The position numbers and the translations under genes were made by a program. A stretch of DNA of 58,266 bases. Origin: an uncultured Bdellovibrionales bacterium. GTDB lineage: Bacteria > Patescibacteriota > Minisyncoccia > Moranbacterales > UBA1568. Below, piece by piece: positions 51 through 58,266 of the stretch. The notes below the pieces were generated by a model. That model saw only the letters and a program-made list of their open reading frames with translations. It had not been told where the DNA came from and ran no database searches. The stretch covers positions 1 to 58,266 of the forward strand of contig CAZCNN010000004.1 of assembly GCA_964500505.1 (NCBI GenBank), read 5' to 3'. Numbering within the stretch: position 1 is the first letter of the stretch; every line of letters begins with the position of its first letter.

Positions 51-101
51 CGGGGCATAGTATAGTGGTAGTACGAGTGGTTTGGGACCATTTAGTCTCG
101 G
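51..101 (+). pseudogene. tRNA-Pro(UGG) 5' fragment (acceptor 5' strand, D arm, anticodon arm, T-stem 5' strand); no 3' acceptor strand
   Basis: Positions 49-101 are identical to 242-294 of the intact tRNA-Pro. The match ends after CTCGG at the start of the T-loop. Downstream sequence cannot pair with CGGGGCA. Confidence 0.75.
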
Positions 102-148
102 GTTCCCCGCCTGCAACGCTTATGCGTAGCATTGCGGGCAGGGATTCC
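101..148 (+). repeat. GGTTCC-[hairpin]-CAGGGATT module occupying the T-loop position of the tRNA-Pro fragment
   Basis: Hairpin CCCGC-C-TGC-A-ACGC-TTAT-GCGT-A-GCA-TT-GCGGG (about 12 bp). 43 of 46 nt are identical to 58022-58067. Confidence 0.7.
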
Positions 149-243
149 GATACGGGTGTAGTTAGAGATAACAGCGAGTGACTTGTAATGAGACCATTTA
201 TGGTCCCTGGTAGGGTTCATTCAATAGAGCAGATTTCACAATT

Positions 244-1809: not shown

Positions 1810-2553
1810 ATGGCCAATTTTACTCTGACACTCAAAGAACAACGAGCGGTTGCCGACGGTACCGAGCTCTTTGTATTCGACAAACCGGCTGACTTCACCT
1901 ACAAAGCGGGGCAGTACGTGGCGATGATGCTCACGAGCCTGGTGGCACCTGATACCCGCGCCGGAGTACGCTCACTCTCGATCGCTTCGGCTCCTTGTGA
2001 GGAAGATCTGTACTTTGCCATGCGCCGGAGTGACAGTGGATTCAAGCAAACAATGTTTGCTCTCCGTCCTGGTGACACGGTTGCAGTGACCAAGGCTATC
2101 GGCCACTTCACCCTCTCACATGCGAGTGACGACCTCCCGATTGTGTTCCTCATCGGTGGGATCGGGATCACGCCAGCTCGGAGTATTCTGAAACAGGCTG
2201 AGCACGAGGGGAGTACCCGGTCATTTACCGTACTCTACTCCAATCGTTTTGAGAAAGACGCTGCTTTCCACGAGGAGCTACGAGACATCAAGCTCGCGAA
2301 CTATCGCTACGTGACGACCCTCTCCCAAGAGACCACCCCCTGTGCTGGGACCAATGAAGAGCGAGGCTATATCTGTGCCGATATGCTCGGGAAGTATGTC
2401 CCGGATGTCCATGGCGTCTGGTACTATCTCGTCGGGGCGCCGGCTTTTATCGAGGCGATGGAAAAGATGCTCTCTGAGATGGGGGTAGCCAAGGAGCGCC
2501 AGGTGTGTGATCCTTTCACAGGGATGGCTACAGCGAGCCAGATGAAGAAGTAG
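1810..2553 (+). CDS. FAD/NAD(P)-binding oxidoreductase (ferredoxin-NADP reductase-like)
   Basis: FAD-binding region with KAGQYVAM and the RSLSIAS motif. NAD-binding region with IVFLIGGIGITPARSIL and YYLVGAPAFIEAM. Start set at the ATG of MANFTLTLKE. Confidence 0.8.
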   Translation: MANFTLTLKEQRAVADGTELFVFDKPADFTYKAGQYVAMMLTSLVAPDTRAGVRSLSIASAPCEEDLYFAMRRSDSGFKQTMFALRPGDTVAVTKAIGHFTLSHASDDLPIVFLIGGIGITPARSILKQAEHEGSTRSFTVLYSNRFEKDAAFHEELRDIKLANYRYVTTLSQETTPCAGTNEERGYICADMLGKYVPDVHGVWYYLVGAPAFIEAMEKMLSEMGVAKERQVCDPFTGMATASQMKK

Positions 2554-2556
2554 TAT

Positions 2557-2627
2557 GCGAGAGTAATACAATGGTAGTATGCCAGCCTTCCAAGCTGGAT
2601 ACGCGGGTTCGATTCCCGTCTCTCGCT
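2557..2627 (+). tRNA. tRNA-Gly (anticodon UCC)
   Basis: GCGAGAG/CTCTCGC acceptor, U73, anticodon loop CT-TCC-AA, T arm GCGGG-TTCGATT-CCCGT. Confidence 0.93.
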
Positions 2628-2642
2628 CAAGTGTTATATCAG

Positions 2643-2680
2643 CCCCGCCTACATCCCGCTTTGGCGGGAAGTAGGGCGGG
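2643..2680 (+). repeat. Long GC-rich hairpin in the tRNA-Gly(UCC) trailer
   Basis: CCCGCCTAC-AT-CCCGC-TTTG-GCGGG-AA-GTA(G)GGCGGG: outer 9 bp with one bulge plus inner 5 bp. Confidence 0.6.
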
Positions 2681-2782
2681 TAAACTTCCAAGCTGAAGAT
2701 GGGGGTTCCTTGCCCGACACACTGACGAAAGTCTGTGGGCGGGGATTTTTACCCGTCCTCTGGCGGGCCGGTCGCCCGCTCA
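2675..2782 (+). repeat. tRNA-Gly-like 3' half (anticodon loop to ...CCCGCTCA) carrying a hairpin insertion in the T-loop
   Basis: 2685-2709 CTTCCAAGCTGAAGATGGGGGTTCC parallels tRNA 2587-2610 CTTCCAAGCTGGATACGCGGGTTCG. After about 31 inserted nt it resumes GGGGATTTTTACCCGTC and ends GCCCGCTCA (tRNA: GATTCCCGTC...TCTCGCTCA). GGCGGGTAAA (2675-2684) can pair with TTTACCCGTC (2748-2757). Confidence 0.55.
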
Positions 2783-2793
2783 AAAAGGTAAAA

Positions 2794-2818
2794 ACCCAAG
2801 CACGTGCTTGGGTTTTTA
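2794..2818 (+). terminator. Rho-independent terminator ending the tRNA-Gly(UCC) transcription unit
   Basis: Palindrome ACCCAAGCAC/GTGCTTGGGT followed by TTTTT. Confidence 0.7.
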
Positions 2819-3096
2819 TTTATGGGTGAGGACTAGAAAACTTTCCCTTTTCATTTCCACAGATGCCACCGAACATCCCTGACTCGTTCTGCCGAACAGG
2901 GAGCTCACTGGTCGAGACCGTCCCTACTCACTCGACTGTTACCGGCTCACTCATCACGGATGCCTGCCCGCCTTCGGAGGGTTACCGTTTGACATCCGAC
3001 GGAAAGAAAAGGAAAAGTGTTTCCATGAAACTAACTCGCAGATTCTCCCTCCCAAGAATCCTCTCGGGCGAATTTTGAGCCGAAAGTTTACCCGCC

Positions 3097-3124
3097 TCAG
3101 GAGGGCAGGTCTTTTTGTGAAAAC
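3097..3124 (+). terminator. Terminator-like hairpin plus T-run in an ORF-poor region
   Basis: ACCCGCC-TCAGGAG-GGCAGGT (one C.A mismatch) followed by CTTTTTG. Confidence 0.35.
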
Positions 3125-3167
3125 AAAAAGTTTCGGATCAAACTTCAACAAAAATCTCGCTGGCCTG

Positions 3168-3190
3168 CCTGCCGGTAGGCAGGGATTTTT
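3168..3190 (+). terminator. Terminator-like hairpin CCTGCC-GGTA-GGCAGG followed by GATTTTT
   Basis: Perfect 6-bp stem. The 18-mer at 3163-3180 is the exact reverse complement of 10501-10518. Confidence 0.4.
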
Positions 3191-3287
3191 GTGGCCAGGG
3201 AGGGTTGCTTGGGAGTGGAGAATACCTAGAGGGGAATATTGAGAGCACGCCATCTCATCTCATACCGTGTATAATAGAGATACACTT

Positions 3288-4538
3288 ATGCTCCCTCTCT
3301 ATTATCGACAAAATCATCGTTTGTTTACCAGAAACCTCTTGTTTCTCGGTTTTGGGGCGCTCGTTATTTTGACTCTCTTGTATTTCTTTGTCTTTCGCAC
3401 GACACCTGAAGCGGAGGAAGAAGTAGCACCGCTCCCCGAGAATACCTCGACCCTTTCTGATTGGGTGGATGAGCAACCGATGCCGAGTGATGAGGCCGAG
3501 CGCCCGCCATCAGTCAAAGAAAAAGAGTATCCGGTCTTACCACCGCCTCCGCCACCCATCATGGCCAAGATGAAGACGCGCGGCTGTGTGGCTGACGGCT
3601 TTCTCTCCGGGTACGGTGGAGATACCAATAGCTCTATCGCCCTTATCAACCGCTCGCAGTGCTACTATCTCCACCGAGCATTAGAGACTTGGCTCGACCC
3701 ACCGGACTTTGGAGAAGCCCGAGAGATTATGGAGCGGGTGACCAAACCCAATACCGTCTATGGGATGTTTATCGCGGAAGCAATCGATACCAAAGCCAAT
3801 TACTACTATCCTGACGAAAAACGAGACTTTGACTTCGGCGAAATGTGTCGTGTAGGAAGCAAGAACTATTGGGGGGAGCATACCTGCAAGCCCTCACTTG
3901 AGCGGCCTGAGTATCGCAAGTATGTCGAGTACATCACCGATGAGGCGATGAATATGGGTATTCAGAGCTTTCTTTTTGGGCAAGTGTTCTATCAGGACAG
4001 TGCCGACCATGAGTCGAGCCGCATGCCGGAAATTATACGCCATATGCGGGATCATGCGGAGTACCTCGGACTCGAGATTATGATCGGGGCCCAGACCAAC
4101 GATATTGAAGATGAGGCCTATCTCCGACTCTTTGACTATATCGAGGGTGGTGTGGGGCTACAGCGAGACGGGAGCGTCGAGAGTGGTGCTTGCTTCTCTC
4201 GCTGGTGGAAGGAGCCAGGGGACTGGTGCTGGGCTCTCCTCTGGCACCCACGTTTTGCGGACAAGGCCAACAACGTCCTGGTGCACTTTGACTGGAGTGG
4301 CAAGCTCGGTGACGATATGAGTGTCTTTACCAGGATGAGTGAGAATGAGCGAGCCGTCACGCTCAAGCGCCTCCATGGCTACTTCACTGGTCGTAATGTC
4401 GGATTCCTTATGCCGATGCTCGCGACACTCCACAAAGACAATGGGGGCTGTAGTGGCCCCAAGAAGCGATTTTATTCGGCCAGTCGCAAGTACACTTGTC
4501 AGGATGAGGAAGTGATCAATGAGATACTGGGGAAATGA
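3288..4538 (+). CDS. Hypothetical membrane-anchored protein (N-terminal TM, Pro-rich linker, about 330-aa extracytoplasmic domain)
   Basis: Long ORF with local codon usage. TM segment LLFLGFGALVILTLLYFFVF, then PPPPPPI. ATG 3288 lies 13 nt after TATAAT (3270-3275). No family recognised. Confidence 0.6.
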   Translation: MLPLYYRQNHRLFTRNLLFLGFGALVILTLLYFFVFRTTPEAEEEVAPLPENTSTLSDWVDEQPMPSDEAERPPSVKEKEYPVLPPPPPPIMAKMKTRGCVADGFLSGYGGDTNSSIALINRSQCYYLHRALETWLDPPDFGEAREIMERVTKPNTVYGMFIAEAIDTKANYYYPDEKRDFDFGEMCRVGSKNYWGEHTCKPSLERPEYRKYVEYITDEAMNMGIQSFLFGQVFYQDSADHESSRMPEIIRHMRDHAEYLGLEIMIGAQTNDIEDEAYLRLFDYIEGGVGLQRDGSVESGACFSRWWKEPGDWCWALLWHPRFADKANNVLVHFDWSGKLGDDMSVFTRMSENERAVTLKRLHGYFTGRNVGFLMPMLATLHKDNGGCSGPKKRFYSASRKYTCQDEEVINEILGK

Positions 4539-10474: not shown

Positions 10475-10542
10475 GCGGGTATAGTATAGTGGTAATACCC
10501 GCCTACCGGCAGGCAGGCGTGACCCCACCAGACCGTTAGAAC
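10475..10542 (+). repeat. tRNA-like 5' element plus CCTACCGGCAGG palindrome in the tRNA-Gly(CCC) leader
   Basis: GCGGGTA-TA-GTAT-AGTGGTA-ATAC mimics an acceptor strand and D arm, but also folds as an 8-bp hairpin GCGGGTAT/ATACCCGC. No anticodon or T arm follows. Confidence 0.55.
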
Positions 10543-10613
10543 GCGAGAGTAGTACAATGGTAGTACACTGGCTTCCCAAGCCAGGGACGCGAGTTCGATT
10601 CTCGTCTCTCGCT
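10543..10613 (+). tRNA. tRNA-Gly (anticodon CCC)
   Basis: GCGAGAG/CTCTCGC acceptor, U73, anticodon loop TT-CCC-AA, T arm GCGAG-TTCGATT-CTCGT. Confidence 0.93.
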
Positions 10614-10616
10614 CAA

Positions 10617-10675
10617 ATTGCGGTCAGGCAGGCAGGGATTTTTACCTGTCCTTTGGCGGGCTCTTTACCCGCTCA
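10617..10675 (+). repeat. tRNA-Gly(CCC) trailer element homologous to 2738-2782
   Basis: ATTGCGGTCAGG is shared with 58052-58063. GGCAGG-GATTTTTA-CCTGTC parallels GGGCGGG-GATTTTTA-CCCGTCC with an A-T to G-C compensatory change. It ends TACCCGC-TCA, complementary to GCGGGTA at 10475. Confidence 0.6.
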
Positions 10676-10680
10676 AATAA

Positions 10681-13448: not shown

Positions 13449-13502
13449 ACCCTGTGTAATTCTGCCTCTGGCAGATCCAGGCTATGCCTGATTACACAGG
13501 GT
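13449..13502. repeat. 54-nt three-way inverted repeat overlapping the promoter of the amidase gene
   Basis: 12-bp perfect outer arms ACCCTGTGTAAT/ATTACACAGGGT. They enclose TCTGCC-TCT-GGCAGA and CAGGC-TAT-GCCTG. TATAAT (13504-13509) follows immediately. Confidence 0.6.
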
Positions 13503-13515
13503 GTATAATAGGGTC

Positions 13516-14289
13516 ATGGGACTCTTTGGACTCATCATGACACTCACCATCCTTGGGCTCGGCATGAGCTACTTCTACTTTGGTATGGGGCCGACGTCAC
13601 TCACGATTGAGAACGATACTCCCGCGCCGGCAGGTCTCGATCTTTATAATGATTTGAAGGAACAAGCGACTGATATCAAAGAGACCGAAGAAGAACGGGT
13701 AGAGGCCGAGATTGCTGCTCTTGAAGAAAATTTGAAACCAGAATCTTTGATTCAACCGAACGTAGCTGATCCTGCCCGCAGTGCTACGACAAGCGTTGCA
13801 GGCGGGGAAATGGAGGCCGAGAAAGAAGTTGATATTGTTGATCGTCTGATGAGCACCGGTTTTGCTGTGCCAGCGAAGGCGCGCACTATTGATACGATTG
13901 TCCTTCATTCGTCGTATAACTCCTTGGGCGGAGACCCGTATTCAGTCGAGAAGGTCGTCGCTATCTACGAGAGCTATGGTGTGAGTGCTCATTACCTCAT
14001 CGACCGGAGTGGCACCATATACCGCCTTGTCGCGGACCAGAATATCGCCTATCATGCTGGGGCGAGCAAGATGCCTGATGGTCGCAAGGATGTGAACAAC
14101 TTTTCTATCGGGATCGAAATCATGAATACAGAGGAGACAAGCTATACCAAGGCCCAGTACGAAGCGGTTAATACCCTTGTCGCTACCCTCAAGAAAAAGT
14201 ACACTATCAAAAACATCGTCGGCCACGCTGACATCGCCCCCGACCGCAAATCCGATCCCTGGAACTTTGATTGGAAGAAGTTGAAGTGA
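13516..14289 (+). CDS. N-acetylmuramoyl-L-alanine amidase (Amidase_2/PGRP fold) with an N-terminal TM anchor
   Basis: IDTIVLHSSY...VSAHYLIDRSGTIYRLV...AYHAG...NFSIGIEIMN...IVGHADIAPDRKSDPWNFDW. ATG 13516 lies exactly 7 nt after TATAAT, so the transcript is probably leaderless. Confidence 0.85.
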   Translation: MGLFGLIMTLTILGLGMSYFYFGMGPTSLTIENDTPAPAGLDLYNDLKEQATDIKETEEERVEAEIAALEENLKPESLIQPNVADPARSATTSVAGGEMEAEKEVDIVDRLMSTGFAVPAKARTIDTIVLHSSYNSLGGDPYSVEKVVAIYESYGVSAHYLIDRSGTIYRLVADQNIAYHAGASKMPDGRKDVNNFSIGIEIMNTEETSYTKAQYEAVNTLVATLKKKYTIKNIVGHADIAPDRKSDPWNFDWKKLK

Positions 14290-53121: not shown

Positions 53122-53164
53122 TGCTATGCTGGAGGCATCCTGCCTACCGGCAGGTAGGTATTTT
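53122..53164 (+). promoter_or_regulatory. TGCTATGCT -10-like box followed by overlapping palindromes CCTGCC-TACC-GGCAGG / CCTACC-GGCA-GGTAGG and a T-run, upstream of nrdR
   Basis: The 12-mer CCTACCGGCAGG (53143-53154) also occurs at 10503-10514, and as its reverse complement at 3168-3179. Confidence 0.4.
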
Positions 53165-57668: not shown

Positions 57669-57718
57669 GCGGGCTGTAGCCCGCCAGAGGTTTACCTGCC
57701 ATAGGCATGGCGGGTAAA
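57669..57718 (+). repeat. Two perfect hairpins forming the tRNA-Pro(GGG) leader
   Basis: GCGGGC-TGTA-GCCCGC, then TTTACCTGCCAT-AGGC-ATGGCGGGTAAA (12 bp), an inverted pair of the TTTACC(C/T)GCC core. Ends 5 nt before the tRNA. Confidence 0.65.
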
Positions 57719-57723
57719 TATAT

Positions 57724-57985: not shown

Positions 57986-58021
57986 AATGACGATGAAAAA
58001 TTCCCCGGAGCATGAGGCCTA

Positions 58022-58074
58022 GGTTCCCCACTTGCAACGCTTATGCGTAGCATTGCGGTCAGGGATTTTTACCC
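58022..58074 (+). repeat. Second copy of the GGTTCC-hairpin-CAGGGATT module seen at 101-148
   Basis: 43 of 46 nt identical to 101-146. Continues TTTTTACCC as in the tRNA-Gly trailers. Confidence 0.7.
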
Positions 58075-58266
58075 ATCAGGCAGTAGCCTATCACTTCGAG
58101 GGCTCGGCCGAAGACGTTGGGCCCGTGGCATTTGTCCGGGGTGACCGCGTGGTGTTTCACTCGAGTGTCCCACAGGGCATCGTCACCCAGTTCGGCGTCG
58201 ATGAGGAGCCACTCATTGTCCTCGAATACGTCGAGTCGGCTGCGACTACCCTTGTGTGTCGCGACC
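58059..58266 (-). CDS. 3' end of a GC-rich ORF running off the window (hypothetical)
   Basis: Hand translation of the minus strand gives ...WLLIDAELGDDALWDTRVKHHAVTPDKCHGPNVFGRALEVIGYCLMGKNP-stop (stop codon is the complement of 58059-58061). About 63% GC on one sampled line. Not in the supplied ORF track because it has no start codon in the window. Confidence 0.35.
   Translation of the reverse strand, partial: VATHKGSRSRLDVFEDNEWLLIDAELGDDALWDTRVKHHAVTPDKCHGPNVFGRALEVIGYCLMGKNP

Follow-up and report, generated by a model that had tools for sequence, protein, structure and literature searches.

A hairpin-interrupted pseudo-tRNA-Gly behind an intact tRNA-Gly(UCC) gene is probably debris of small selfish cassettes encoding a GIY-YIG nuclease

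The stretch of DNA that follows an intact tRNA-Gly(UCC) gene in an uncultured bacterium resembles part of a tRNA, is filled with hairpins and precedes a terminator, and the question raised by this locus is whether it represents a tRNA-like RNA in its own right or the remains of something else. The window analyzed here is the whole stretch of 58,266 nucleotides in which the locus lies, and its gene content (rpoB/C, ftsZ/A, gyrB, recA) identifies the host as bacterial. An archaeal origin, or archaeal introns, were ruled out because of this bacterial gene content. Loci used for comparison are designated by L and a number. The features of the locus are as follows.

2557-2627, plus strand: intact tRNA-Gly(UCC) gene, 'GCGAGAG' allele (ARAGORN; Rfam RF00005, 71.3 bits)
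2630-2643, plus strand: relic segment 1, a D-loop remnant AGTG plus TTATA-TCAGC, about nt 14-31 of tRNA-Gly
2644-2684, plus strand: hairpin HP-1, 41 nt, CCCGCC...GGGCGGGTAAA, between tRNA positions 31/32 at the base of the anticodon loop
2685-2708, plus strand: relic segment 2, nt 32-56 (anticodon loop, anticodon-stem 3' strand, variable region, T-stem 5' strand, TTC)
2709-2743, plus strand: hairpin HP-2, 35 nt, in the T-loop between C56 and G57
2744-2747, plus strand: GATT, the 3' part of the relic T-loop (nt 57-60), placed by alignment to intact tRNA-Gly genes
2748-2767, plus strand: hairpin HP-3, 20 nt, TTTACCCGTCCTCTGGCGGG, between the T-loop and the T-stem 3' strand (60/61)
2768-2783, plus strand: relic segment 3 (T-stem 3' strand CCGGT, acceptor 3' strand CGCCCGC, discriminator T, CAA)
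2789-2818, both strands: bidirectional intrinsic terminator, a perfect 15+15 nt palindrome (terminator scan)

The tRNA-Gly(UCC) gene, which ARAGORN and Rfam place where a previous sequence-only reading had put it, starts 3 nt past the stop codon of an FAD/NAD oxidoreductase gene (1504-2553), and CCA is not encoded in it. The allele of L010 is near-identical and differs by one compensatory pair. A recombination tract from an L010-like donor running through the 3' end of the oxidoreductase ORF was rejected, as the end of the window's ORF is L001-like and not L010-like.

The sequence downstream of this gene had been described as a tRNA-Gly-like 3' half. The relic begins earlier than that description allowed, at 2630, and spans nt ~14-76 of tRNA-Gly with interruptions by three GC-rich palindromes of 41, 35 and 20 nt, each of which appears as a clean insertion when the relic is aligned to the intact tRNA-Gly genes of L001, L003 and L149. 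In segment 1, TTATA-TCAGC corresponds to the D-stem 3' strand, nt 26 and the anticodon-stem 5' strand; its TTATATCAGC matches the GCGGGCG-type alleles (L001-L009) at 10/10 positions, and the segment has 3 mismatches to the window's own tRNA-Gly(UCC). In segment 2, 24/24 positions agree with the tRNA-Gly(UCC) allele of L018-L025 and 4 differ from the window's own tRNA; segment 3 is a 16/16 match to the allele shared by L002, L003, L004 and L149 and departs from the window's own at 3 positions. The derivation of the trailer from tRNA-Gly was thus borne out by these matches to other tRNA-Gly(UCC) alleles. The related claim that 2685-2709 repeats the neighboring tRNA holds to the extent that 2685-2716 is 78% identical to 2587-2618, with CTTCCAAGCTG exact, but the 3, 4 and 3 mismatches in the successive segments indicate that the relic is not the adjacent tRNA's copy. 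The 5' acceptor strand is missing, and GGGGG, the T-stem half in segment 2, cannot pair with CCGGT, the half in segment 3, which makes the relic a chimera of at least two alleles. Judged from its sequence, 2630-2783 is a 5'-truncated chimeric pseudo-tRNA-Gly(UCC) and not a purpose-built tRNA-like RNA; by the same allele matches, its parts come from at least two sources, none of which is the adjacent functional tRNA.

Searches with tRNA and RNA models are consistent with this description. ARAGORN calls only 2557-2628 at the locus, and no second RF00005 match was found at the relic even at E <= 10. Rfam searches of the window region and six relatives, at the gathering thresholds and at E <= 10, returned only tRNAs and terminator look-alikes. 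A tmRNA or permuted tmRNA was rejected, as it left just an 11-bit T-arm echo. The predicted fold of the trailer is far stronger than that of shuffled sequences (z = -4.5; 0/200 shuffles as good), and the minimum free energy fold is predicted to retain the relic anticodon stem (2639-2643/2692-2696) around HP-1.

Nearly all of the features named in the sequence-only reading are there, with some corrections. The hairpin previously given as 38 nt is real, and is a 41-nt insertion (HP-1) inside the anticodon arm of the relic. HP-1 belongs to a hairpin family of the form CCYGCC...GGCRGG; it is missing from all intact alleles, no empty relic site was seen for it, and site 31/32 holds other hairpins in L018, L019-25 and L149-156. 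HP-2 is a GC-rich hairpin that lies exactly in the T-loop, as proposed, but it measures 35 nt rather than about 31 and has the loop GACGAA, not GAAA. L020-L025 lack this hairpin and read GGTTCGATT at its site; the window, L019 and L026-28 have it, and its insertion duplicates no target sequence. Position 56/57 is also filled in two pseudo-tRNA-Pro copies (106-142 and 58027-58063). The sequence then resumes with GATT and ends in ...CGCCCGCTCA, as had been read, while the 'TTTACCCGTC' taken for the resumed T-stem is the start of HP-3. HP-3, whose boundary is ambiguous by 1-3 T, is present in L019-L025 and missing in the otherwise identical L026-L028, where GATT is followed directly by CCGGTCGCC; an HP-3-like copy, 85% identical, occupies the same position in the trailer of tRNA-Gly(CCC) (10641-10660).

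HP-2 and HP-3 are present or absent independently of each other among near-identical strains, and four structural haplotypes were found at the locus in contigs whose adjacent 744-nt gene is 99.2-100% identical. L149 differs from L150/151 by one D-arm hairpin, and hairpins are stacked in tandem at one site in L019 and L156. Although the arms are inverted repeats, as in a MITE, the filled and empty sites (GGTTC joined to GATT; GATT joined to CCGG) show no target-site duplication. HP-2 and HP-3 jointly make a hairpin followed by a U5 run. The possibility that such units of hairpin plus GATTTTT are mere terminators was rejected: the U-run at 2746-2750 is absent in L026-28, and it exists only because HP-3 begins with TTTA. 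The hairpin at 2762-2780 was also considered as a collapsed form of a ~147-nt element found in L002, L008, L012 and L152, and this was rejected because the strain alignment shows HP-3 abutting the relic tail; nhmmer found no copy of that element in the window.

As the sequence-only reading had noted, the trailer precedes the first strong terminator behind the tRNA. The terminator scan flags 2818-2789 on the minus strand with 13 pairs. Direct inspection of the plus-strand sequence shows a stem (CCCAAGCAC/GTGCTTGGG) with TTTTTATTTAT behind it, which is the form of an intrinsic terminator, and the terminator part of the Leu_leader model matches 2789-2818 on both strands. It had been called the trailer's own terminator, and that attribution fails: it is orthologous to the nearest species' GTAAAAACTCAAGCATGCGCTTGGGTTTTTAC, which stands directly behind the intact tRNA of L001, and by this orthology 2789-2818 is the ancestral tRNA-Gly's own terminator. 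It also ends a conserved minus-strand RNA-like element (element A, 2835-3035). The terminator scan found none between tRNA-Gly(UCC) and the relic, and passive co-transcription of the relic with the tRNA is plausible on this arrangement.

Each of the four tRNAs in the window is flanked by relics of this kind. Those outside the tRNA-Gly(UCC) locus are listed here.

51-150, plus strand: pseudo-tRNA-Pro(UGG) relic, identical (100%) to the intact gene as far as the T-stem 5' strand
10475-10517, plus strand: relic upstream of tRNA-Gly(CCC), nt 1-~25 of a 'GCGGGTA'-type tRNA, then a 20-nt hairpin (10498-10517)
10617-10677, plus strand: relic downstream of tRNA-Gly(CCC), a hairpin remnant (10617-10636), GATT, the HP-3-like hairpin (10641-10660) and a tail
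57670-57723, plus strand: relic upstream of tRNA-Pro(GGG), nt 1-10, hairpins (57680-57718) and nt 11-15, abutting the intact gene
58005-58077, plus strand: relic downstream of tRNA-Pro(GGG), a fragment ending in GGTTC, a hairpin (58027-58063), GATT and TTTACCCATC

In the pseudo-tRNA-Pro(UGG), positions 49-101 repeat 242-294; the relic has one extra G, and GGTTC (101-105) is followed by a hairpin (106-142) between C56 and G57 and then by GATTCCGA. The hairpin at 58027-58063 is 93% identical to this one. Downstream of tRNA-Gly(CCC), the relic is 83% identical to 2738-2784 over 47 nt, and its tail, which ends in TACCCGC-T-CAAA, is complementary to the GCGGGTA fragment upstream of the gene.

The pattern CCYGCC...GGCRGG has 15 matches in the 58 kb, some of them overlapping (about 12 distinct hairpins), compared to 3.9 expected from shuffles. 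REP and BIME sequences are small palindromic repeats of bacteria, and the hairpins are likewise short, multicopy, non-coding palindromes, all but possibly the one at 13771-13806 lying in non-coding DNA. The family is dispersed, yet concentrated in the pseudo-tRNAs of all four tRNA loci of the window. About six hairpins lie outside tRNA relics (at 1410, 2963, 3091, 3164, 13771 and 53139): those at 1410-1445 and 53139-53158 are intergenic, those at about 2963-2982, 3091-3109 and 3164-3183 lie within two conserved RNA-like elements, and that at 13771-13806 is an inverted copy of 106-142 with unrelated flanks, near an ORF start. No shared flanking tetranucleotide was seen around the hairpins of the window.

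A possible source of such relics was found in relatives. In L018 and L149-153, the oxidoreductase stop codon is followed by a pseudo-tRNA-Gly with a 20-nt hairpin at 31/32, GAGGA plus 5 nt plus ATG, a 79-aa ORF, and the intact tRNA. The pseudo-tRNA of these cassettes consists of nt 1-31, the hairpin and nt 32-46, and stands ahead of a GIY-YIG ORF and the intact tRNA. Against PF01541, these ORFs score 42-58 bits (cutoff 22.6), and the 79-aa GIY-YIG protein has no DNA-binding domain. The same cassette design occurs in unrelated contexts (L154-156), with the 3' ends of the ORFs overlapping the 5' ends of the tRNAs in L154, and in distant genomes the 20-nt hairpin CCTGTCTGCCGACAGGCAGG is found at the junction 31/32 upstream of a GIY-YIG ORF. 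The cassette is polymorphic for presence and absence: L149 is filled (pseudo-tRNA, hairpin, ORF and tRNA) and L003 and L004 are empty (tRNA only), and these loci have in common the upstream flank ...gatgaagaaataagagagaa and the tRNA allele. Within the window, phmmer against all ORFs found no GIY-YIG ORF, so the link to the cassette at this locus is by locus homology and not direct.

A metagenome scan, in which the T-loop position was imposed by the search pattern, returned 64 hairpin-filled T-arms in 50 loci. For 25 of these T-arms, an intact tRNA (seven isotypes) stands upstream on the same strand and the 3' tail matches, and T-loop hairpins were found in pseudo-tRNAs of at least seven isotypes. 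GIY-YIG ORFs adjoin 18/50 loci with hairpin-bearing T-arms, compared to 1/70 other loci. In L075, a tandem array is built of 433-nt units, each with a GIY-YIG ORF and a hairpin-bearing pseudo-tRNA-Arg.

Taken with the chimeric anatomy of the relic, these observations suggest that the trailer is probably a dead remnant of earlier tRNA-Gly(UCC) copies, left as debris of repeated invasion and replacement by small selfish SegB-like cassettes. A complete cassette would comprise a gene for a minimal GIY-YIG nuclease (about 79 aa) and a tRNA copy or part-copy that keeps one tRNA functional, and its junction with the displaced fragment of the host tRNA would be marked by a GC-rich palindromic hairpin (CCYGCC...GGCRGG). 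The putative nuclease would cut tRNA genes, like T4 and T6 SegB, and recombinational repair would copy the cassette into the cut gene. Later recombination between the flanking tRNA repeats could delete the ORF and leave solo hairpins in orphaned tRNA pieces, each hairpin disrupting the nuclease target or the recombination substrate in the redundant copy. The intact tRNA copy retains an intact T-loop and anticodon loop, and this counts against the cleavage model; the hairpins outside tRNA relics (about six) could be mobilized by something unrelated. The relic itself would be transcribed only passively, as a tRNA 3' trailer up to the inherited terminator, and discarded after 3' processing. No function is indicated for it. 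Its decay is not random, and is the signature of a recurrent mobile system.

In phage T4, the tRNA cluster harbors a GIY-YIG homing endonuclease, SegB (PMC2330249). The T6 enzyme cleaves within tRNA genes, with RAWTSGAAC as its motif, and causes a tRNA+segB unit to be amplified in tandem through microhomology of the 5' end of the tRNA with the 3' end of segB (PMC13096335). The reverse complement of this motif, GTTCSAWTY, would be the T-loop sequence, the site of many of the hairpins. The cassettes resemble SegB in having a GIY-YIG gene among or beside tRNA genes, and the SegB amplification is resembled by the 433-nt arrays of L075 and the ORF/tRNA end overlap of L154. They differ in their cellular (CPR) rather than phage setting, in a protein that is a bare 77-92-aa catalytic domain of putative activity with no DNA-binding part, in the nesting of the gene between an intact tRNA and its pseudo-copy, and in junctions marked by GC-rich palindromes. 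Yeast and fungal mitochondria have palindromic GC clusters that merge with one another and stack as compound clusters (PMC4478555). With these and with REP/BIME repeats the hairpins have in common that they are short, GC-rich, multicopy and sporadic palindromes with fast turnover within a species, and that they merge and stack; they are distinguished by a strong preference for tRNA-derived sequence at 10/11, 31/32, 56/57 and 60/61 and by their GIY-YIG association. No target-site duplication was seen, and the Pfam scan of the window ORFs (58 kb) showed no RAYT-type transposase. Selfish elements that encode homing endonucleases also invade structured-RNA genes in the same bacterial radiation. 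Most of those are group-I-like introns that encode LAGLIDADG enzymes, and they are removed by splicing, whereas here there is no ribozyme, the enzyme is of the GIY-YIG family, and function is kept by a spare tRNA copy and not by splicing. Archaeal tRNA genes can have introns at non-canonical positions or be split or permuted (PMC4090602, PMC3978253). The likeness lies in extra sequence in the D-, anticodon- and T-loop regions, including around 56/57; the differences are the bacterial host and a window relic without an acceptor stem, which would give no tRNA even if spliced. TIGR-Tas arrays, which need box C/D units and a Tas protein, were considered and are unrelated. Our literature search found nothing on GIY-YIG genes nested in duplicated cellular tRNA genes, nor on T-loop palindromes, which is not proof of novelty.

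Other explanations of the hairpins and the fragments were weighed against this one. The hairpins may be autonomous REP/MITE-like palindromes that are moved by an unrelated enzyme (e.g. of the IS200/IS605 or RAYT type) with a preference for stem-loop-forming DNA, the pseudo-tRNAs being ordinary decaying duplicates and the GIY-YIG genes a separate matter. Insertion without target-site duplication is typical of IS200/IS605-type elements, and the hairpins in intergenic DNA, in conserved RNA-like elements and near an ORF start, together with the tandem stacking in L019 and L156, would fit such a mode of movement. We nevertheless consider it unlikely: a Pfam scan of the window ORFs (58 kb of genome) found no Y1/RAYT or other transposase, GIY-YIG ORFs are enriched beside hairpin-bearing T-arms, and the same hairpin recurs at the same 31/32 junction upstream of GIY-YIG ORFs in distant genomes. 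Moreover, the stretch of HP-2 and HP-3 parts tRNA segments of different allelic origin, which fits cassette boundaries and not random landing. The fragments could instead be attL/attR scars of integrase-borne islands or prophages that integrated and were then excised. Integrases are known to use the anticodon loop and the T-loop, and it is at these positions that the identity block of the relic begins. Integrating elements classically leave partial tRNA genes beside intact ones, and such att duplications confuse tRNA annotation (PMC9897764). The likeness lies in an intact tRNA accompanied by a displaced fragment of itself and in an element that restores the gene it interrupts. No integrase or recombinase was found in the window or at any locus examined, the repeats are only 0-400 nt apart (tens to hundreds of bases), the fragments are chimeric with hairpin insertions and occur on both sides, 5' parts upstream and 3' parts downstream, and the cargo, when present, is a 79-aa GIY-YIG gene, all of which makes scars of this kind highly improbable.

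There is similarly little reason to expect that the trailer is a purpose-built, co-transcribed tRNA-like RNA, a 3'-half mimic with an expanded T-arm that serves as a processing signal, decoy or regulator, and this we regard as very unlikely. Its strong predicted structure, the terminator-free interval between tRNA and relic, the similar module behind tRNA-Gly(CCC), and the placement of the insertions at points where a self-folding hairpin disturbs a cloverleaf least (loops, stem ends, the interior of the D-stem) would suit such an RNA. Against it, the unit is missing from 18/18 other-species syntenic loci, in most of which the terminator stands directly behind the tRNA, and its presence, length and composition are all polymorphic within one species, among strains at least 99.2% identical in the neighboring gene. 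This comparison with related genomes goes against the sequence-only reading, and absence in other species combined with polymorphism among strains argues against a conserved functional RNA. The chimera has no 5' acceptor strand and no pairable T-stem, and the relic gives no Rfam or tRNA-model signal. The pairing predicted across the insertion is present (2673-2689 with 2743-2759, 17 nt, 82%), but the 10-bp pairing of the sequence-only reading joins the ends of two family hairpins with common TTTACCCGCC/GGCGGGTAAA arms. It is also very unlikely that the hairpin-bearing copies are real genes in which the hairpin is an intervening sequence tolerated or removed at the RNA level. In silico removal of the hairpin gives complete tRNAs at 4 sites, the tRNA-His(GTG) of L068 and L092 has an encoded CCA and matched T and acceptor stems on contigs (3.4-3.9 kb) that hold no other tRNA-His, and hairpins also lie within an otherwise intact conserved structured RNA. 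The remaining 132/136 sites do not yield complete tRNAs, an uninterrupted copy is nearby wherever context is available, L068 has a second 3' tail 60 nt downstream like other relic arrangements, and the window relic is unable to form any tRNA. The archaeal splicing endonuclease is not known from bacteria.

A narrower form of this last idea has a slim chance of being right, namely that, in some lineages, hairpins in sole tRNA copies (perhaps the tRNA-His(GTG) of L068/L092) and in conserved RNAs such as element A are helper-free intervening hairpins at the elbow position 56/57 that are accommodated or removed. If true, these bacteria would express tRNAs and other RNAs with such hairpins, and a minimal GIY-YIG nuclease would have seeded a type of tRNA intervening sequence that is new for bacteria.

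For annotation, the trailer is a pseudo-tRNA with repeat insertions and not a new RNA gene. Under the cassette explanation that we favor, the locus suggests that CPR and other uncultured bacteria harbor a selfish system, apparently not yet described, in which a bare GIY-YIG nuclease gene resides inside duplicated tRNA genes, one tRNA is kept intact, and hairpin-tagged pseudo-copies are left behind. The tRNA loci become hotspots of allele swapping even within one species, as the four haplotypes with 99-100% flank identity illustrate. Such a system would carry the phage SegB-tRNA relationship over to cellular genomes and would provide a natural setting for the study of how a minimal nuclease domain locates its target. 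It could also explain the tRNA fragments and palindromes that clutter the tRNA neighborhoods of streamlined genomes.

The tRNA-Gly(UCC) gene, called intact by ARAGORN and Rfam, starts 3 nt past the stop codon of a gene for an FAD/NAD oxidoreductase, and no sigma-70-like promoter was found at 2000-3600 of the window; the tRNA is therefore probably co-transcribed with the oxidoreductase gene or served by an atypical promoter. The trailer behind it (2628-2790) folds far more stably than shuffled sequences (z = -4.5). The sequence-only reading had described this trailer as resembling the 3′ half of tRNA-Gly, and the similarity was confirmed: over 2685-2716 the identity to tRNA positions 2587-2618 reaches 78%, with an exact 11-mer. 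No RNA family besides tRNA was matched in this region in Rfam. Alignment to intact alleles resolved the tRNA-derived relic into nt ~14-76 of tRNA-Gly and three clean insertions, the hairpins HP-1 to HP-3. The features of the window are as follows:

2557-2627: intact tRNA-Gly(UCC)
2630-2783: relic
2644-2684: HP-1, 41 nt, between tRNA positions 31 and 32
2709-2743: HP-2, 35 nt, in the T-loop between C56 and G57
2748-2767: HP-3, 20 nt, between tRNA positions 60 and 61
2789-2818: bidirectional terminator (perfect, 15+15 nt) closing the 2628-2790 trailer
2835-3035, minus strand: conserved structured non-coding element A
3036-3266: conserved non-coding element B, adjoining A, also in the related loci L005, L007 and L008 (nhmmer)
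13771-13806: inverted copy of the hairpin at 106-142, with unrelated flanks

The relic segments match different tRNA-Gly alleles: 2634-2643 those of the GCGGGCG type (10/10), 2685-2708 that of the related loci L018-L025 (24/24), and 2768-2783 that of L002/3/4/L149 (16/16), with 3, 4 and 3 mismatches, respectively, to the window's own tRNA. The allele switch falls between the second and third segments, spanning HP-2 and HP-3. Given these differing origins, T-stem halves that are unable to pair (GGGGG and CCGGT) and a missing 5′ acceptor strand, the relic is, as judged from its sequence, a chimeric pseudogene. It is probably transcribed passively, as a 3′ trailer of the tRNA. The 10-bp pairing of 2675-2684 with 2748-2757 proposed earlier is present; its partners are the 3′ end of HP-1 and the 5′ end of HP-3; such TTTACCCGCC/GGCGGGTAAA arms are common among members of the CCYGCC...GGCRGG hairpin family.

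A search with the upstream protein retrieved 18 syntenic loci in Candidatus Moranbacteria/Moraniibacteriota MAGs, in which the genes run tRNA-Pro(UGG), CofD, oxidoreductase, tRNA-Gly(UCC). When the tRNA-Gly(UCC) trailers were compared, the terminator lay directly behind the tRNA in most of these loci. In L001, the nearest species (91% protein identity), tRNA-Gly(UCC) is of another allele (GCGGGCG...CGCCCGC), and window 2773-2823 aligns with the 3′ end of that allele and its terminator. The alignment indicates that the window's terminator, earlier read as the trailer's own, and the adjoining 5′ sequence are the remains of the ancestral tRNA gene at this position. The window's gene content is bacterial (rpoB/C, ftsK, recA, gyrB, ftsA/Z, comEC). 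Many of the syntenic MAGs (L001-L007, L011, L012, L014, L015, L017) are titled 'uncultured Bdellovibrionales' and carry the Moranbacteria-type locus with protein identity up to 91%; the records are probably mislabelled as to taxon.

Contigs sharing the identical 247-aa oxidoreductase, which are 99.2-100% identical to the window across that gene, showed four structural haplotypes. Contigs L026-28 equal the window except that HP-3 is missing (GATT|CCGGTCGCC), and L020-25 have HP-3 and an empty T-loop (GGTTCGATT). In L019 the intact tRNA that precedes the same relic is a different allele, and an upstream pseudo-tRNA carries hairpins at 31/32 and in its D-arm. A D-arm hairpin likewise distinguishes L149 from L150/151. 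In the strain alignments the insertion is the sole difference between filled and empty sites, and no target site is duplicated. Our comparisons indicate that the relic hairpin insertions are mobile.

Hairpin-bearing relics occur at all four tRNAs of the window. A pattern search for CCYGCC...GGCRGG hairpins gave 15 matches, some overlapping and about 12 distinct, per 58 kb versus 3.9 in shuffles, mostly within tRNA fragments. The trailer of tRNA-Gly(CCC) (10543-10613) has a stretch 83% identical to 2738-2784. Upstream of tRNA-Pro(UGG), 53 nt of the gene's 5′ part are duplicated at 100% identity; the copy ends at the T-stem 5′ strand and is followed by one extra G, the T-loop start GGTTC, a 37-nt hairpin and GATT; this hairpin recurs, 93% identical, in a tRNA-Pro(GGG) fragment (58005-58077). 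The conserved 'leader' of tRNA-Pro(UGG) (L002-L006, L013; window 150-241) consists of one or two tRNA-Pro copies that have degenerated and whose anticodon loop is altered (GAGTGACTTGTAATGCGACCATTT); in L004, a 20-nt palindrome lies in the D-arm of one copy. A -10-like TACAAT stands just ahead of the mature 5′ end of tRNA-Pro(UGG). The hairpin at 13771-13806 falls in the mechanically called N-terminal part of an ORF for an amidase (13501-14289), ahead of the Amidase_2 domain; translation may really start at a codon downstream of the hairpin.

The shared bidirectional terminator forms the end of element A, which has homologs in L003 (two inverted copies), L004, L005, L008 and L020, partial matches in L001, L026 and L028, and no match in Rfam. 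Its RNAalifold consensus is a long irregular hairpin of 38 pairs, 17 with compensatory changes, and near-invariant loops (GGUAACAGUCGAG, CCCUGUUCG, GAGUCAGGGAUGUUCG); only the window copy has an extra GC hairpin of ~19 nt (about 2963-2982). Element B of the window contains family hairpins at 3091-3109 and 3164-3183, each with a T-run behind it. Another element of ~147 nt, absent from the window, sits between tRNA-Gly with its terminator and a second tRNA 3′ tail copy (L002:4232-4374, L008:3897-4042, L012:3696-3843, L152:1856-1998). An inverted T-arm (GGAATCGAAC) forms its start, and compensatory changes maintain its hairpin pairing (CGGGGAAC/GTTCCCCG versus CGGGAAAAC/GTTTTCCCG).

Metagenome contigs were scanned for GGTTC-hairpin-GATT, a pattern that itself imposes the T-loop position, giving at least 136 matches in at least 120 loci. 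Real hairpins were present in at least 91 of the matches listed, and the flanking T-stem was able to pair in at least 64 (at least 50 loci). At least 25 filled T-arms (at least 20 loci) repeat the 3′ tail of an intact tRNA that precedes them on the same strand at a distance of 6-1300 nt; the isotypes of these tRNAs are Arg, Leu, Glu, SeC, Phe, Gln and Pro. At several loci the tRNA and pseudo-copy enclose a gene for a 77-92-aa protein, a bare GIY-YIG catalytic domain (Pfam PF01541, 42-58 bits); among the matches listed, such ORFs occurred at 18 of 50 T-arm loci versus 1 of 70 others. The tandem array L075:4558-6213 comprises an intact tRNA-Arg(CCG), three 433-nt units and a fourth GIY-YIG ORF, each unit being an ORF plus a near-full-length pseudo-tRNA-Arg with a ~105-nt palindromic D-loop insertion and a 27-nt T-loop hairpin. 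In L068:3096-3210, L092 (identical sequence), L083 and L145, full-length genes have as their sole defect a hairpin between C56 and G57: a tRNA-His(GTG) with encoded CCA, a tRNA-Arg(CCT), and an unusual gene resembling tRNA-Ser(UGA). The contigs carrying this tRNA-His (3.4-3.9 kb) contain no uninterrupted copy, and a second 3′ tail lies 60 nt downstream of it.

In sister genomes (L018, L149-151, L152-153), a GIY-YIG ORF of this kind also sits at the tRNA-Gly(UCC) locus itself. The order at this cassette locus runs from the oxidoreductase stop codon through tRNA-Gly nt 1-31, a 20-nt hairpin (CCTGTCTGCCGACAGGCAGG), tRNA-Gly nt 32-46 with GAGGA 5 nt ahead of the ATG, and a 79-aa ORF to a gap of 3-6 nt, the intact tRNA and the terminator. 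L003 and L004 share the flank and tRNA allele of these loci and lack the cassette, and L154-156 have the same design in unrelated contexts. There is no GIY-YIG ORF in the 58-kb window.

The closest known systems include free-standing SegB-type homing endonucleases, partial tRNA genes from integrating elements (PMC9897764), REP-like palindromes and mitochondrial GC clusters (PMC4478555), and homing-endonuclease-bearing insertions of CPR rRNA genes (PMC11270868). In none of the four does a minimal GIY-YIG gene of a cellular genome lie within a duplicated tRNA gene and have hairpins at its junctions, and no description of this arrangement was found in the literature searched. Phage SegB, a GIY-YIG homing endonuclease of the T4 tRNA cluster (PMC2330249), is the precedent for the mechanism proposed below; in T6 it cleaves inside tRNA genes, at RAWTSGAAC, and causes a tRNA+segB unit to be amplified in tandem (PMC13096335). 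By our own reading, this site on the opposite strand is GTTCSAWTY, the T-loop. It is a speculative and rather doubtful idea that the 56/57 hairpin would destroy a SegB-like site in the redundant tRNA copy.

GIY-YIG ORFs are co-located with a pair of tRNA copies, one intact and the other bearing a hairpin, the pseudo-tRNAs are chimeras, and the hairpins come and go. In the mechanism we propose, the nuclease would break tRNA genes, and repair would copy in the cassette, which would make up for the lost part of the tRNA and thereby keep one copy functional. Repeated events would build arrays, and recombination between the flanking tRNA repeats would remove the ORF and leave solo hairpins in orphaned pieces. 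The relic itself is an ordinary pseudogene, and the window locus retains only footprints of the GIY-YIG cassette.
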